A stretch of 24,000 nt of DNA from Spartinivicinus marinus. GTDB taxonomy: Bacteria > Pseudomonadota > Gammaproteobacteria > Pseudomonadales > Zooshikellaceae. Location: assembly GCF_026309355.1 (NCBI RefSeq), contig NZ_JAPJZK010000002.1, positions 93,485 through 117,484 of the forward strand, read 5' to 3'. Position numbers and translations under genes: made by a program. Below the pieces are notes generated by a model. It was not told the origin of the DNA and made no database searches. It was given only the letters and a program-made list of their open reading frames with translations. The first letter of the stretch is position 1; each line of letters starts with the position of its first letter. Of the stretch, positions 13,170 through 19,951 are shown in pieces.

Positions 13170-13421
13170 TTAGCAACTACGAATAAGCGGTTTATATTCT
13201 TTCGTTTCTTCCATCACGGCATAAATACCCGCCAGTATACAAGCCTTAATGTCATCTGGTTGAGGTAAACAACCTAAGTCGTCAGCCGTTAATGACTTCT
13301 CTACCCATTGGCCACAATGGGTCCAATAGCGAATTAAAAATTCTTCAGACGCTATCTCAATACTGTATTCCCACGCTTTACCATTGATGCGCTGATCTTC
13401 TCTGGTCACTTGATGCCACAT
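13170..13421 (-). CDS. Small hypothetical protein, tentative fourth member of the local paralog family
   Basis: The track start at 13457 lies inside a terminator hairpin. The preferred ATG at 13421 is preceded by AGGAA. The N-terminus RINGKAWEYSIEIASEEFLIRYW resembles YRGKHWEYEFEDLSDALTMYH of the 15269..15661 protein. Confidence 0.55.
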   Translation of the reverse strand: MWHQVTREDQRINGKAWEYSIEIASEEFLIRYWTHCGQWVEKSLTADDLGCLPQPDDIKACILAGIYAVMEETKEYKPLIRSC

Positions 13422-13433
13422 AATTGTTCCTAT

Positions 13434-13460
13434 AAAAAAGGGGATGTTAATTAACATCCC
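13434..13460 (-). terminator. Rho-independent terminator after the GP88-like gene
   Basis: Perfect 20-bp palindrome GGGATGTTAATTAACATCCC (13441-13460), i.e. an 8-bp stem with a 4-nt loop. On the minus strand it is followed by CTTTTTTATA. It lies 10 nt downstream of the stop at 13470. Confidence 0.7.
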
Positions 13461-13469
13461 TAAATTAAG

Positions 13470-14114
13470 TTACACTTGCTTTAATTGTAATCGTTTTTTT
13501 TGACTAACACCATGCAGCCTGTAGGCTACAACAGGTACTGTCTTATCCCAACACGCTCGGCACTTTTGACACGTCCCATGTTGCTGAGAAGCAGGACAAA
13601 TATAGACACCTTCAATCGCATGGATAGTCTCATCATCAATAATGATAGATCCATGTTCTTCGTTATATTCACCGACAATAGAGTCACTGGAATAACGAAC
13701 GCAAACATTTTGCAATTGGTTAAGCTGCTCAAGGTATGTCCGTATTTTTGGAAATTTGTGAGACCGAGTAGGAATCCAGTGGCTTACCCAAGGTGTTCTT
13801 TGGCAAACCACTAGAATTTTCTTGGCCAGTTCAGGATGAAAAATGTCGCCTGAATCAAACCATCTAAAAAAACGGTCATTATCAAGCGCTTCCACCATAT
13901 CACTCACCCAGTCGTCTCGTTTCCAATCGATATAATTGTTCTGTCGAGTTGCTTTAACAGAGCCAAACCTATATCGGCCTTTACTCGCATAACATACTTT
14001 ACAAGCGTCTACTGTGTTACCATGATTATCTTTAGAACCGGGACAGGTATTAATCGCTTCTAATGACCAGCTTTTAATATTACCCAGTTTCTTAACAACA
14101 GATAATTTGATCAT
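13470..14114 (-). CDS. Cys-rich protein resembling the phage GP88 family (Pfam GP88-like), function unknown
   Basis: 214 aa. Motifs recalled from that family: N-terminal TCPGS...CKVCYASKGRY, central FRWFDSGDIF...WIPTRSH, C-terminal CPA...CQKCRACW. Assignment is from memory only. Confidence 0.5.
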   Translation of the reverse strand: MIKLSVVKKLGNIKSWSLEAINTCPGSKDNHGNTVDACKVCYASKGRYRFGSVKATRQNNYIDWKRDDWVSDMVEALDNDRFFRWFDSGDIFHPELAKKILVVCQRTPWVSHWIPTRSHKFPKIRTYLEQLNQLQNVCVRYSSDSIVGEYNEEHGSIIIDDETIHAIEGVYICPASQQHGTCQKCRACWDKTVPVVAYRLHGVSQKKRLQLKQV

Positions 14115-14203
14115 ATAAATACAATCTCAAATACAACAGGCACTGCGAAACAGCGTCACCCTCAACCATTGAGCCTATATGGTGACTTTTTCTACTTAGG
14201 GTG

Positions 14204-14572
14204 TTAACGATTTAAGGTACTCATGCCACTCTTGTCGTGCCGTTTTTTATACGCTTGCTTGCGTTTATGTTTATACGCCAATACTTCAGTATTGCTGGGA
14301 ATTGACATATAACCATCAAAACGCACTTTGCTGTAATCATTATCAGCTAACATAATTGCCGCCTCAAAATCCAGCACAAGAGATGGACTTGACTCTGTAT
14401 CAACTAAAAAAACCGGTATATTTTGCTCACCCTGTCTTTTCTCGATACTCACCTTATCACCCCATGAAAGTTCGCATTCCTGATACCAAGCTAACGCTTC
14501 CGCATAGGCATTAAACTCAAATACATAAAGTTCGTCGTCACTGTAACTATAAGCTTTAACAGCAAAGTACAT
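14204..14572 (-). CDS. Small protein, paralog family member (most diverged)
   Basis: 122 aa. ATG preceded by AAAGG. N-terminal domain MYFAVKAYSYSDDELYVFEFNAYAEALAWYQECELSWGDK...IPVFLV aligns with the two paralogs upstream. Basic C-terminal tail. Confidence 0.65.
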   Translation of the reverse strand: MYFAVKAYSYSDDELYVFEFNAYAEALAWYQECELSWGDKVSIEKRQGEQNIPVFLVDTESSPSLVLDFEAAIMLADNDYSKVRFDGYMSIPSNTEVLAYKHKRKQAYKKRHDKSGMSTLNR

Positions 14573-14590
14573 AATCGATTACCTTTATTG

Positions 14591-14623
14591 GGATAAAATA
14601 GCACTCAGCCGGATACGACTGAG
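14591..14623 (-). terminator. Terminator-like hairpin between two paralog genes
   Basis: ACTCAG-N10-CTGAGT (14602-14623), followed on the minus strand by GCTATTTTATC. A longer imperfect hairpin lies just upstream: AGTCGGGC...GCCCGACT (14631-14670), with inner CTG/CAG and TAGC/GCTA pairs. Confidence 0.45.
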
Positions 14624-14709
14624 TAAAATTCAGTCGGGCCGCTGATAGCAGAACGCTAACAGAGCCCGACTAAAAGAATGAAGGTAAATTCATACCACTC
14701 ATTAGTTGA

Positions 14710-15099
14710 TTAAAGGAATAACTCGTCAGGAAAATGACCTTTCAAACAACACACTGCATAATAAATCCGTTCTTTCCAGGTTAATTTTTCCTGTTCTAAC
14801 GGTCTATGCTGATTATTTAAAATATCATGTGACCTATAACACGTTTCCATACCACAGAAACTAAGCGTTTCATTCAGAACATCGGCTTGCAGTCTGGCTT
14901 GTTCCCAGCCTTCAACTCGCTCTGTTCCTACATAAAAACAAGGTACTTCATAAGGTCCAGTCATTTTTAACAATCTTTTTGTGTCTCCTGAAGACAACAC
15001 AATCTCATTGTATGCCGTTAATGCATCTGAGTAATTTTCATAAAAACAATTATGACACTTATACTCTTCATCATTTAAGACATGTAAGACCTGATACAT
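14710..15099 (-). CDS. Small protein, paralog family member
   Basis: The track start at 15105 is a GTG. The preferred ATG at 15099 has AAGGG 8 nt upstream. It shares YSDALTAYNEIVLSSGDTKRLL...EVPCFYVGTERVEGWEQAR and C-terminal LKGHFPDELF with the next paralog. Confidence 0.7.
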   Translation of the reverse strand: MYQVLHVLNDEEYKCHNCFYENYSDALTAYNEIVLSSGDTKRLLKMTGPYEVPCFYVGTERVEGWEQARLQADVLNETLSFCGMETCYRSHDILNNQHRPLEQEKLTWKERIYYAVCCLKGHFPDELFL

Positions 15100-15160
15100 A
15101 ATCACTACCCTTTTTTAGGCAAATAGAATTGAGTAGAAAAACTACTGAATTAGGAAAAGT

Positions 15161-15244
15161 CACCAACAACACAAGGTTATTAGTGGCTCACAATAATTAG
15201 CTAACAGGCAATACCTGAACGCTATAGACAAAAAATAATGGCAA
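15161..15244 (-). repeat. 84-bp intergenic repeat, copy A (partner 15708..15791)
   Basis: caccaacaacacaaggttattagtggctcacaataattagctaacaggcaatacctgaacgctatagacaaaaaataatggcaa matches copy B with about 5 mismatches. The offset between copies is 547 bp. Confidence 0.9.
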
Positions 15245-15268
15245 AGAGATTTATAGAAGATAATCCTT

Positions 15269-15661
15269 TCAACAGAATAACTCTGCAGGTAAATGTCCTT
15301 TTAGAACCCACTTGATCAAGTACAACCTTCTTGACCAAGACATCCTAGAACTCTTTTTATACAGTTCATTTTTCTCTTTGTTTAGAAGAGTATGCACTTT
15401 ATATCGAGTTACCATATGGCTAAAAACAGCGCCTGCATTTCTAGACTTCTCTAATTGCCTCGCTTTATCCCAGCCTTCAACACGTTTAGAACCAACATAA
15501 AAAACGGGTACTTCGTGTGGCTGCTCCACTTCTATCAGTTGTTTTATATCACCTGGGGATAGGAATATTTCGTGATACATAGTTAAAGCATCGCTTAAAT
15601 CTTCAAACTCATATTCCCAATGCTTCCCACGATAAAACTCATCCTGACAAACAAGATACAT
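15269..15661 (-). CDS. Small protein, paralog family member
   Basis: The track start at 15682 is a TTG. The preferred ATG at 15661 has AAAGG 8 nt upstream. Conserved segments LSDALTMYHEIFLSPGDIKQLI...EVPVFYVGSKRVEGWDKAR and C-terminal LKGHLPAELF. Confidence 0.7.
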   Translation of the reverse strand: MYLVCQDEFYRGKHWEYEFEDLSDALTMYHEIFLSPGDIKQLIEVEQPHEVPVFYVGSKRVEGWDKARQLEKSRNAGAVFSHMVTRYKVHTLLNKEKNELYKKSSRMSWSRRLYLIKWVLKGHLPAELFC

Positions 15662-15707
15662 AGTAAATACCTTTACAATCAATAATGATTGAATGAGGAC
15701 AGTAAGC

Positions 15708-15791
15708 CACTAACAACACACGGTTATTAGTGGCTCACAATAATTAGCTAACAGGCAATACCTGAAGGCTATAGACAAAAAATAATGACAA
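15708..15791 (-). repeat. 84-bp intergenic repeat, copy B
   Basis: See copy A. It starts 2 nt after the stop of the 15794.. ORF and ends 46 nt upstream of the ATG at 15661. Confidence 0.9.
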
Positions 15792-15793
15792 TA

Positions 15794-16135
15794 TTACGCC
15801 ATTGTTTTCATAGTCTGTGGGACTAATTGAATATATCGTTCATAACGAAATTCGTTATCAACCTGACGAAACGCCTGGTCAGGTCTGATATCATTAATAG
15901 TGGACTTATCATCTTTCACAAGATTTAGAGCCATTACTAACAGGTCCAGTGGTTGTGAATCAGAAACAACCCCTTCTCCTTTAATACAAACCAAATGCTC
16001 GTCAATGGATAAATCAATACTTCCTTCGACTAGTTTTTGGTTTACCTCAGTCACAATCGCTTTTAATAAAGTGGCTTGATGACTAGGTAGTTTGCCTGAA
16101 AAATAAATCCAACCGGATAGTTCAACAAAATACAT
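15794..16135 (-). CDS. Hypothetical protein
   Basis: The track ORF is 15794..16204. The preferred ATG at 16135 (GGAA 6 nt upstream) gives MYFVELSGWIYF.... No recognisable motif. Confidence 0.5.
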   Translation of the reverse strand: MYFVELSGWIYFSGKLPSHQATLLKAIVTEVNQKLVEGSIDLSIDEHLVCIKGEGVVSDSQPLDLLVMALNLVKDDKSTINDIRPDQAFRQVDNEFRYERYIQLVPQTMKTMA

Positions 16136-16496
16136 ACTAATTTCCAAATCAATACAGAAACTGCATACGCAATTGCACCCTCGAAATTGAGTCTGTTGGT
16201 GCATGGGTGCTGGGAATCCAGCGGGTACTTGTGAGACAGCACAAGCAACTGATGGAAATCAGCCAACATTCGTTGAATGATAGGAATAAACCACTATGAC
16301 CTCGCATGGTAGTTTATTGCTATAATTCAACTGACGTATGAATAGTTGTAACTAACGGCTACAAATTTTGATAAAAGGAATAAGCGCCAGGACGGTTTTA
16401 CAACAATATAGGTAAAACATTTGGCAAAGAAATAGAATAAGCGTAAAAGTGATTAACACTTTACGGGGAGTTGGAATAAATCAATTTTTGGAAGAA

Positions 16497-16528: not shown

Positions 16529-16560
16529 TTTGAATTATTTTAAACCATCACTACTAAAAG

Positions 16561-17427
16561 TCAACGTCCTAAATACACCGCCGTAATTTGTTCACGACTA
16601 TGCCCCAATTCATGGGTAATGACCTGCCGTGCTAATTGGTCCCGCATTTTTTCTTCGGGGGTTAACTCCTTGCTACTCTTTCCACCGGCTGCCGGTGGCA
16701 CCATTCCCGTTAACTCAATATAGCGTTCTTGAGCATAATGGTGGCGTAAGCCGTGCATTTTTGAAAATCCAGCATTTTGGGTCAACCGTTCATAAGAACG
16801 TAAGTGTTGCCGGTAAGATTTATTTGCTGGAATCATCGAGCTAGAACCGGCATAAGCCTGTACTCTTTTTAGCACATCCCGTTGGTAATCATTGCGAATG
16901 GGGATATTTCTTGGGCGGCCCCCCTTTGTCCATGAATCCTTTAGCCGAATGTGATCGGCTTGAATGGCGAAAGAAGGTGTAAATTTTAAGCACTCTTCAC
17001 GACGCAGCCCAAAGGCACGCTGTAATTCTAATGACAGCTTAATTCCCATGTCTTTAATTGTATTGAGCTTGTCACTGTCTAATGTTTGCGCTTTTGATTC
17101 ATTGGTGACATAAACCCGTTTATCAATACCATAACTGTCGTTACTTCTTGCAATGACGGCTGCTTTATTCACTTTTTGCGCCCACCACCGTAAACTCGAC
17201 ATTCGGTCTTTGATTGTACTTACTTGTAAGTCTTCCTCTTTCCAACGGTTTACCAGCGCTTCAACATGCTTTGGTTTTATTGAGCTGGCATTCATTTTTC
17301 TAAAGCCCATCTCATGTAACTGGCTAGCGACTAGTTGTAGGGTATGATGACGCTTGCTTTGCGTGGAATAGGAGCCATCTCGATTGCGATCACATAGTTG
17401 TTTTAGTTCAAAATTCAGTTTTTTCAT
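16561..17427 (-). CDS. Tyrosine recombinase (phage-integrase family, short form)
   Basis: 288 aa. Catalytic signature elements: AFGLRREE (Arg), HGLRHHYA (His-x-x-Arg), LGHSREQITAVYLGR (His and the nucleophile Tyr). ATGA overlap with the upstream Toprim gene at 17424-17427. Confidence 0.85.
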   Translation of the reverse strand: MKKLNFELKQLCDRNRDGSYSTQSKRHHTLQLVASQLHEMGFRKMNASSIKPKHVEALVNRWKEEDLQVSTIKDRMSSLRWWAQKVNKAAVIARSNDSYGIDKRVYVTNESKAQTLDSDKLNTIKDMGIKLSLELQRAFGLRREECLKFTPSFAIQADHIRLKDSWTKGGRPRNIPIRNDYQRDVLKRVQAYAGSSSMIPANKSYRQHLRSYERLTQNAGFSKMHGLRHHYAQERYIELTGMVPPAAGGKSSKELTPEEKMRDQLARQVITHELGHSREQITAVYLGR

Positions 17428-19060: not shown

Positions 19061-19521
19061 CAGACTTCAGTTAGCGTCTGAAGCAAGACATCGCTGTCAG
19101 TGAGTGGCAGGGGTACCGTCTGTTAACGTCCGAGGCGAGACGTAGTTGCTAATGATTCGCAACTAATTGCTTCTCTTTATCGTCTGAAGCAGTGGACGCC
19201 GTTGCTATAAAACCAGCAACTATGGGTGCTCCCGTTATAGTCCGAAGCAAGACTTTTCCACTCGACTAACAGACCTCAGTTATCGTCTGAGGCAAGACGT
19301 TGCTGCCAGCGGGTAGCAGGGGTACCGTCTGTTAACGTCCGAGGCGAGACGTAGTTGCTCAATGACTCTCACAACTAATTACTTCCCTTTATCGTCTGAA
19401 GTAGGACGCCGTTGCTATAAAAGCCAGCAACTATGGGTGCTCCCGTTATAGTCCGAAGCAAGACTTTTCTACCTACGCTGACAGCTATGGGAACCTCAGT
19501 TTAGCGTCTGAGGTGCACGAC
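19061..19521. repeat. Tandem ~209-bp non-coding repeat (2 full units plus a partial third) made of hairpins and GTCY-N6-RGAC mini-palindromes
   Basis: Unit 1 is 19061-19259, unit 2 is 19270-19470 and the partial unit 3 starts at 19491. Long identical blocks are present (e.g. ggggtaccgtctgttaacgtccgaggcgagacgtagttgct in both units). No ORF. Confidence 0.9.
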
Positions 19522-19610: not shown

Positions 19611-19661
19611 CGAGACGCGCAGCGCCTCGTCTCTACACCACTTCGTTTCGTAGAGACGAGG
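19611..19661. promoter_or_regulatory. Nested, mutually exclusive GC-rich inverted repeats
   Basis: GAGACG (19612-17) pairs with CGTCTC (19628-33). CCTCGTCTCTA (19625-35) pairs perfectly with TAGAGACGAGG (19651-61) across a 15-nt loop. The middle segment is shared by both structures. Confidence 0.7.
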
Positions 19662-19753
19662 CTTATATCTTCTAAATTATGCAAATGAAAATTACTACCC
19701 TTGCATGCTTATTGAGTATTTATTCAATTCAATCAATTGATGTCATAAACTAT

Positions 19754-19924
19754 CAATATATATTGTACATATATTGAATTATATACATTATACATAAGAA
19801 ATATATTGTATATATATTGAATCATACAACAGTACATTCAATTACAATTAAAAATAGGTTGATATTAAGTAAATTTATATTGTATTATAATTTTATACAT
19901 ACAATTTATATTGTCTGTATATTG
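19754..19924 (+). promoter_or_regulatory. parC: Iteron array upstream of the parM-like gene (candidate parC centromere/promoter)
   Basis: Seven direct TATATTG copies start at 19759, 19770, 19802, 19813, 19876, 19907 and 19918. Three pairs are exactly 11 bp apart. The 21-bp unit TATATTGTAYATATATTGAAT occurs twice. 12-bp palindrome CAATATATATTG at 19754-19765. Confidence 0.6.
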
Positions 19925-19951
19925 TAATACACACACAATTAAGGAAATACA

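Follow-up and report, generated by a model that had tools for sequence, protein, structure and literature searches.

The leading-region anti-defence islands of conjugative plasmids consist of small, fast-evolving and mostly uncharacterised genes that share one orientation and lie near the DNA-processing genes of the element (Samuel et al. 2024, PMC11541004). In that study, the relaxase gene falls in the lagging region, and the enriched genes are found on the leading side of the origin of transfer (oriT), opposite the relaxase and among approximately the first 30 open reading frames (ORFs), and are transcribed towards oriT with the transferred strand (T-strand) as template. Relaxases of MOB type M are absent from this study, which defines the leading-region rule, and so is the class of tyrosine-recombinase-type relaxases (PMC11541004). 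Within the latter, the domain PF12835 is the signature of the "INT_DTR-like" class, which is exemplified by MpsA, the atypical relaxase of the tyrosine-recombinase family encoded by SGI1 (PMC10484663; PMC9299015); MobK and TcpM are other described relaxases of the tyrosine-recombinase type (PMC8152469; bioRxiv 10.64898/2026.01.13.699239). Here we analyze a 24,000-nt stretch of DNA from Spartinivicinus marinus (contig NZ_JAPJZK010000002.1, positions 93,485 to 117,484), hereafter the window, which contains three small genes, named A, B and C, located near the genes of a conjugation system. We show that the three genes encode an orphan accessory family that is nearly unique, and our comparison with related loci largely establishes that the gene islet to which they belong occupies a variable cargo slot between the gene for an MpsA-type relaxase candidate and the operon that encodes PilL and a type IV secretion system (T4SS). 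A preliminary description of the window had read the cluster as a leading-region island of anti-defence and establishment genes; its observations on the genes themselves are largely right, and the leading-region reading is probably wrong.

A nearly unique family of diverged paralogs

All three genes are located on the minus strand: A at 14204..14572 (122 aa), B at 14710..15099 (129 aa, including 7 Cys) and C at 15269..15661 (130 aa). Judged by their sequences, they are genuine diverged copies encoding one protein family: pairwise BLASTP aligns B and C with 44% identity over 126 aa (E 8e-35), A and B with 29% identity over 96 aa (E 5e-8), and A and C with 31% identity over the N-terminal 58 aa (E 3e-5). 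A is the most diverged copy; approximately its first 110 aa are common to the family, and it lacks the LKGH..ELF tail with which B (LKGHFPDELFL) and C (LKGHLPAELFC) end. The features by which three clear paralogs had been recognized in the preliminary description were all recovered, namely the MY start in A, B and C, the motifs DAL..Y.E..LS.GD, (V/I)P.F and VEGW(E/D).AR in the alignment, the motif LKGH(F/L)P.ELF, which is limited to B and C, and the AAAGG/AAGGG ribosome-binding sites, which are found 8-9 nt 5' of each ATG. A fourth member that had tentatively been proposed at 13170..13421 (minus strand) was not supported. This ORF, orf83, encodes a small acidic orphan protein and is located 3' of the islet terminator described below; it shares with C a local match of only 19 aa (E 0.003 for the single comparison), has an hhalign probability of 0.15% against the family profile, and went unlisted even at E<=10 when this profile was run with hmmsearch against all pieces of a six-frame translation covering the window and plasmid DNA on its flanks. 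Thus, the family has three members here, not four.

The earlier statement that no known family is recognizable was confirmed by every sequence and fold library searched. Pfam, NCBIfam, PHROGs and PADLOC contain no match for A, B or C, and a PDB sequence search was empty. Among 5.8 billion protein clusters, searched by word index with C and then with a four-sequence alignment, we recovered only the three window proteins and one other, P0002, which is a C orthologue (66% identity) encoded on two ocean-metagenome contigs of ~950 bp, one of them from TARA. When 1.84 billion representatives were searched with the HMMER profile, without an index, these four came back and, in addition, P0005. We rejected P0005 as a relative and regarded the match as spurious, or as no more than a clue to the fold, because its whole-protein E-value of 2e-20 is a sum over eight identical MucBP repeats. 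A single one of these repeats reaches an hhalign probability of 64% against the family (aligned region EYEFED.S.A...Y......GD), and the Pfam model of MucBP (PF06458) does not match A, B or C at E<=0.1. This domain, an extracellular adhesin repeat, is the sole match from outside the family in the exhaustive profile search. At the DNA level, tblastn with B against plasmids and with C against phages gave nothing at E<=1, and megablast of the 12-19 kb part of the window found no match in PLSDB or in E. coli genomes. The profile search that had been proposed for defining the family therefore ends at four members, and their neighborhood is a conjugative plasmid and a metagenome fragment. Orphan accessory families of this kind, like clusters of small orphan genes, are common on mobile elements.

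Comparison of C with P0002 yielded a synonymous divergence (dS) of 0.61, a nonsynonymous divergence (dN) of 0.22 and a ratio (omega) of 0.37, with a bootstrap 95% interval of 0.20-0.64; by this measure, selection on C is purifying but relaxed. Since omega is well below 1, C and its relatives are real, fast-evolving proteins. Among A, B and C, dS is saturated, and this saturation together with the C-orthologue ratio bears out the earlier claim that these are fast-diverging tandem paralogs. The description of the proteins as partly acidic holds for the N-terminal 62 aa, whose isoelectric points (pI) are 4.0-4.9 in all four family members (A, B, C and P0002), but not for the C-terminal halves of A and C, which are basic (pI 9.6 and 10.3, respectively); that of B is acidic. 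Nothing in the sequences of A, B or C suggests a signal peptide or a membrane segment. AlphaFold2, given the four-sequence alignment, produced a model of C with a mean confidence (pLDDT) of 69 and one of B with a pLDDT of 80.5, in which residues 20-100 score 84-96. The two models have one predicted topology, b-b-a-b-b-b-a-b-b followed by helices (b-b-a-b-b-b-a-b-b-a in B). Foldseek, which the preliminary description had suggested as a check, recovered no known or housekeeping family: no neighbor below E 0.1 was found when the C model was compared with PDB and BFVD or the B model with PDB, the best matches had E-values of 0.17-1 and TM-scores of at most 0.32, and the anti-CRISPR protein AcrIF9 appeared at noise level (E 3.4, TM 0.24). 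Taken together, A, B and C are in all likelihood soluble cytoplasmic proteins of ~125 aa that share an acidic alpha/beta domain and differ in their C-terminal tails.

The islet, its slot and its intergenic structures

The window lies within a 74-kb contig (assembly GCA_013425485.1), of which our analysis covered all but ~25 kb on the left and ~9 kb on the right, and a second assembly has the same genes on a contig of 176 kb. The plasmid encodes Rep3, ParA/ParB-KorB and StbA/ParM for replication and partition, a PFGI-1/MPF_G-type T4SS including PilL (TIGR03748), the coupling protein (T4CP), TraU, TraG_N and others, and further cargo in the form of umuDC, SRAP and type I-F cas genes. From 18.9 kb to 2.3 kb of the window, every gene is located on the minus strand, and the order in the direction of transcription is orf101, a DUF3991-Toprim gene, the PF12834/PF12835 gene that encodes the relaxase candidate, orf113, C, B, A, a GP88-family gene, orf83 and pilL. 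The islet covers 3.5 kb (~13.0-16.6 kb), and its GC content is 0.36-0.39, compared with 0.41-0.47 in the T4SS genes.

To place the islet, we compared ten loci that encode relatives (46-61% identity) of the integrase-like PF12834/PF12835 protein. None of these loci encodes A, B, C, orf113, GP88 or orf83, and the cluster genes are therefore dispensable cargo and do not belong to the backbone. In L007 the integrase-like gene is followed after ~150 bp by pilL and the T4SS genes, and in L008 the T4SS genes lie directly 3' of it. In L009 and L010, by contrast with these empty configurations, the slot holds ~8 kb of ordinary cargo (a YegP-like protein, a sensor kinase and a TonB-dependent receptor), and L005 has signaling genes 3' of the integrase-like gene. 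The mobile-element neighborhood that the preliminary description had claimed is thus real, and it takes the form of a variable accessory slot on a conjugative plasmid.

The best sigma-70-like promoter of the region (16537..16564, minus strand; TTGACT-16-TAAAAT, 10/12) is located right after the stop codon of the relaxase-candidate gene and would give a leader of ~400 nt. A 26-nt match to the 3' end of B within this leader (16368-16393, minus strand; 22/26, E 0.018 in a tiny search space) was considered as the remnant of a decayed paralog and rejected as not significant. The islet transcript probably ends at an intrinsic terminator 3' of GP88 (13441..13460, minus strand), which consists of an 8-bp GC-containing stem followed by CUUUUUUAU. 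Strong stem-loops fill the intergenic gaps orf113-C, C-B and B-A, with z-scores of -6.3, -2.7 and -6.1, respectively. It had been proposed that at least some of the paralogs are independent units separated by terminators; hairpins are indeed present in the gaps and one true terminator follows GP88, but the U-runs of the other hairpins are weak or missing, the one after GP88 alone having a proper U-tract, and the gaps upstream of C, B and A contain no sigma-70-like promoter scoring at least 9/12.

The orf113-C and C-B gaps contain copies of the same 88-nt element composed of two hairpins, copy 1 at 15704..15791 (minus strand; -41 kcal/mol, z -6.3) and copy 2 at 15157..15244 (minus strand), which are 94% identical. 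With flanking genes that are synonymously saturated, this high identity suggests that the copies underwent gene conversion or that the element spread recently. As direct repeats around gene C, the two copies would also permit deletion of C by homologous recombination. The element is present in two of the five gaps; it is missing from the B-A and A-GP88 gaps. The B-A gap contains three stem-loops of another sequence (14602..14703, minus strand; -51.2 kcal/mol, z -6.1), of which that at 14625..14602 is terminator-like, and which have the motif CTGTTAGC in common with the 88-nt element. In all three gaps the sense strand folds better than the antisense strand (-41, -29.2 and -51.2 versus -34.4, -24 and -42.6 kcal/mol) because of G.U pairs. 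The element is retained, with compensatory changes, in the metagenome relative L002; across an alignment of three sequences, 92% of the cells are standard pairs and three pairs are changed on both sides, a weak result given so few sequences. No copy of the element was found elsewhere, and metagenome DNA-pattern scans with the hairpin element and with the conserved motif upstream of orf113 found nothing. The 10 matches of a 16-mer scan of viral contigs approximate the chance expectation and were disregarded. Two sub-threshold matches of the hairpins to miRNA models in Rfam are noise.

The first gene of the islet, orf113 (15794..16135, minus strand), encodes an acidic orphan protein with an MY start; it has no relatives in the protein database, and neither orf113 nor orf101 is related to the A/B/C family. 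Immediately upstream of P0002, the ocean-metagenome contig has a conserved version of the orf113 C-terminus (RYERYI.L.PQ), and the gene order orf113-C is therefore retained there. Approximately 10-70 nt upstream of orf113 lies a 55-nt noncoding motif (16146..16203, minus strand) of the form TGCACC..ACAGACTCAATT..GAGGGTGCA..ATGCAGTTTCTGT, which includes a conserved hairpin TGCACC...GGGTGCA. In the ocean-metagenome contigs, the motif recurs (L002 908-964, L003 864-920) at ~190 nt downstream of P0002; it may have a regulatory role or mark the boundary of a module.

Possible roles of the cluster

As a whole, these observations are best explained by a cargo islet that is expressed from double-stranded DNA as one transcript and encodes diversifying protein-binding inhibitors, an explanation that we regard as possible rather than probable. 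The sigma-70-like promoter at 16564-16537 would drive the islet as a single mRNA, which would end at the intrinsic terminator at 13441-13460, and the intergenic stem-loops would probably tune the dose of each gene relative to the others, whether through partial termination, processing or 3' stabilisation. A, B and C might bind and inhibit proteins of the host or of rival elements one-to-one, much as phage early genes do when they counter defences or take over the host; by duplicating and rapidly diverging, they might come to cover a wider range of targets; and the proteins might act in the donor or once the plasmid is double-stranded, and not as leading-region genes expressed from single-stranded DNA. 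In our analysis, an anti-defence or inhibitor role of the three proteins is a plausible guess. The more specific proposal that A, B and C, perhaps together with orf113 and GP88, represent a new anti-defence or host-takeover family with an unseen alpha/beta fold, which diversifies by tandem duplication in a cargo slot next to the MpsA-type relaxase of marine conjugative elements, seems unlikely. Were A, B and C inhibitors of host defences, the known set of anti-defence folds would gain a new one.

What points in this direction is the phage-like composition of the islet. The last gene before the terminator (13470..14114, minus strand) encodes a Cys-rich protein of 214 aa that belongs to the GP88 family (PF17338, DUF7227; E 3e-35), homologues of which were found in 16 phage records versus one of 72,556 plasmids. 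In Acinetobacter phages, these homologues are encoded in the early region amid small ORFans, and in the phage with the best match (MW202796, 53% identity) the gene is located directly upstream of a genuine ArdC gene (ArdcN and MPTase-PolyVal domains). Like the ORFan clusters of phage early regions, the islet consists of a run of small orphan ORFs with long structured spacers, to which the phage-type GP88 gene may be added. Unlike them, it is plasmid-borne, and none of the phage ORFs neighboring GP88 is similar to A, B, C, orf113 or orf83. The islet's likeness to a phage early region is the one hint, and a faint one, of an inhibitor or anti-defence role.

Several points weigh against this explanation. 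A, B and C have no similarity to any known anti-defence protein: no member of the Ard, Acr, Ocr or other such families was matched in Pfam, PHROGs, PADLOC, PDB sequences or the PDB and BFVD folds. The acidity of the N-terminal domain is modest, with a net charge of ~-8 over 62 aa, which is far from that of the DNA mimics ArdA and Ocr. The association between GP88 and ArdC is known from one phage, and the cargo that relatives have in the same slot is ordinary (TonB receptor, sensor kinase, diguanylate cyclase). The promoter and the terminator are consensus matches, the AlphaFold2 models and the pair-covariation counts are weak since they derive from four sequences, and the fold searches spanned PDB and BFVD, so that a fold relative may exist among cellular proteins.

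The position of the cluster, with the relaxase-candidate gene on one side and the pilL/T4SS operon on the other, and its co-orientation with both, would also suit transfer accessory factors, that is, regulators or chaperones of the relaxosome or the T4SS, or proteins that are translocated by the T4SS and act in the recipient. Some T4SS substrates carry positively charged C-terminal signals, which the basic C-terminal halves of A and C resemble, but the corresponding half of B is acidic and no homology to Tra or Trb accessory families was found. Moreover, elements with the same backbone lack the cluster genes, which argues that these do not encode core transfer functions. We consider a transfer role unlikely, and take an equally reserved view of the idea that the genes are functionless hitch-hiking ORFans, the slowly decaying remnants of a phage-derived fragment. 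The extreme rarity of the family, the low GC content of the islet, its dispensability in relatives and an omega value that is high for bacterial genes would all fit such remnants. Against this stand three intact ORFs with good ribosome-binding sites, an omega clearly below 1 even at the upper bootstrap limit of 0.64, the confident AlphaFold2 model of B, and the conservation of the orf113-C order and of the intergenic structure in an independent element at a dS of ~0.6.

Orphan immunity clusters typically are tandem arrays of diverged small cytoplasmic paralogs. A, B and C could, by this likeness, form an array of immunity or antitoxin-like genes directed against polymorphic toxins or the toxins of competing elements, and their quick evolution and the very narrow distribution of the family would be in line with such a role. 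Its chances are small, however, as the window and the flanks that we read contain no toxin domain, no Rhs, contact-dependent inhibition or type VI secretion gene and no toxin-antitoxin partner, and none of the proteins matches an immunity or antitoxin family.

The relaxase candidate, the candidate oriT and the leading region

The gene at the upstream boundary of the islet (16561..17427, minus strand) encodes a protein with PF12834 (E 2.6e-17) and PF12835 (E 6.7e-12) domains, in which the motifs LRREE, HGLRH, LGH and VYL are visible, and which is a candidate relaxase of the MpsA type. The likeness to MpsA rests on the PF12835 signature rather than on a direct comparison with the MpsA sequence. 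Integrase-like relatives are encoded in L005-L014, L026 and L027 and by 241 PLSDB plasmids, many of ~5 kb; of these plasmids, 145 were typed as non-mobilizable by MOB-suite. The integrase-like gene and that of the coupling protein are the only large genes of the Vibrio plasmid pSIO1 (4.9 kb), the two directly abut on a Pleionea plasmid, and the integrase-like gene adjoins T4SS genes in L007 and L008, which resemble integrative and conjugative elements.

A perfect inverted repeat with 13-bp arms, GCCTCGTCTCTAC-13 nt-GTAGAGACGAGGC, is present at 19624..19662 (minus strand) and is a candidate oriT or relaxase-binding site. A homologous repeat with the core CGTCAC...GTGACG is located 490-725 nt upstream of the PF12835 gene in eight relatives, that is, in the related elements with an intact, readable region upstream of that gene. 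From element to element, the outer bases of its arms covary, and seven of the eight have it as the longest perfect inverted repeat of the region; the repeat of L006 has one mismatch, and that of L005, which lies beside a transposase gene, has a degenerate left arm. In the window, the distance between the repeat and the PF12835 gene is 2.2 kb because orf101 and the Toprim gene are inserted between them. The mobilisation module of SGI1 (PMC9299015, PMC10484663) shares the PF12835 signature, and the spacing of the repeat in the relatives matches that of the oriT upstream of mpsA. The window differs from SGI1 in that orf101 and the DUF3991-Toprim gene intervene, and in that its protein has a fused N-terminal SAM-like domain, whereas SGI1 has a separate MpsB. 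This by-product of the analysis, a candidate MpsA-like relaxase with a conserved upstream inverted repeat, linked to MPF_G T4SS genes, may perhaps prove more useful than the cluster itself.

These assignments, both putative, bear on the leading-region view of the preliminary description, by which the cluster would be an island for anti-defence or establishment; its genes would then be expressed early, off the single strand as it enters. We now give this view little chance of being correct. The genes do resemble such islands in being small, fast-evolving, mostly uncharacterised, partly acidic and in one orientation near the DNA-processing genes of a conjugative plasmid, GP88 neighbors ArdC in one phage, and transfer by tyrosine-recombinase-type relaxases may have either polarity, so that early entry is conceivable. 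However, if the repeat is the oriT, the cluster is located on the relaxase side, which is conventionally lagging (PMC11541004), and all its genes are transcribed away from the candidate oriT, a misfit for a leading-region island. With canonical polarity the cluster would enter the recipient last, and with the reverse one it would arrive as the coding strand instead of as the template. A second relaxase gene may exist in the ~34 kb of the contig beyond the DNA covered. The neighbor of the Toprim gene is the relaxase candidate itself, and the positional argument from a transferred-primase-type gene finds no support. Furthermore, searches with Pfam, NCBIfam and PADLOC detected no anti-defence, single-strand-binding protein (SSB), PsiB, Ard or methyltransferase genes at 13-19 kb of the window; neither ssb, psiB and ardA nor klcA was found nearby, and umuDC and a ParB-like gene, which are typical of leading regions, lie across the candidate oriT. 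A reading of the hairpins as a promoter of the Frpo or ssi type was also rejected: judged on structural features alone rather than by comparison with known Frpo sequences, their stems are at most 16 bp, -35 and -10 boxes are missing, and they fold more stably in the sense strand. As short, sense-favored hairpins, they are therefore more likely RNA-level elements than single-stranded DNA promoters. Should A, B and C nevertheless inhibit host defences, it would follow that counter-defence genes can lie outside the canonical leading region where the relaxase is of the tyrosine-recombinase type.

It is very unlikely that the genes are cassettes, each with an 88-nt stem-loop, moved in the manner of an integron by the adjacent tyrosine recombinase: as in cassette arrays, small ORFs in one orientation alternate with imperfect inverted repeats that are structured, two copies with 94% identity lie on either side of C amid synonymously saturated coding DNA and a gene of the tyrosine-recombinase family is located immediately upstream at one end, but the geometry led us to reject an integron-like reading of the element, which has no attC architecture or R''/L''-L'/R' arrangement and no GTTRRRY/RYYYAAC core at the stem base (AAC/GTT lies beside the loop), is confined to two of the five gaps and was found nowhere else, and the recombinase is not IntI-like and not divergently oriented, being instead a co-oriented PF12834/PF12835 protein of the MpsA relaxase family whose relatives abut T4SS or T4CP genes without any cassette.

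Some further observations concern the surroundings of the candidate oriT. In L007 (23-8047), the genes upstream of the repeat encode an nSTAND1-FGE-sulfatase, a reverse transcriptase and a TIR-FGE-sulfatase, which are defence-type proteins, and in L008 (5827-9216) they encode AcaB, StbA/ParM and RadC. Transcription of all these upstream genes of L007 and L008 runs towards the repeat, as one would expect of a leading region if the polarity is canonical. To the right of the window and beyond Rep3 (L015 13403-21062, equivalent to ~25.8-33.5 kb), genes for ParB-HTH, umuD, umuC, SRAP, csy2, csy3 and csy4 are present; the plasmid thus carries a type I-F CRISPR-Cas system of its own, and umuDC lies on the side of the candidate oriT that is conventionally leading. 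Between the candidate oriT and orf101, the window contains a tandem duplication of ~210 bp (19061-19472), whose pieces are 90-100% identical and which is dense in short hairpin motifs (YCAGACG.TAACTGRG); the duplication could contain iterons, accessory-protein sites or a single-strand initiation site. Finally, AT-rich direct and inverted repeats (ATATATTGTATATATATTGA) located at 19745-19933, right upstream of stbA/parM, are probably a parC-type centromere and operator.

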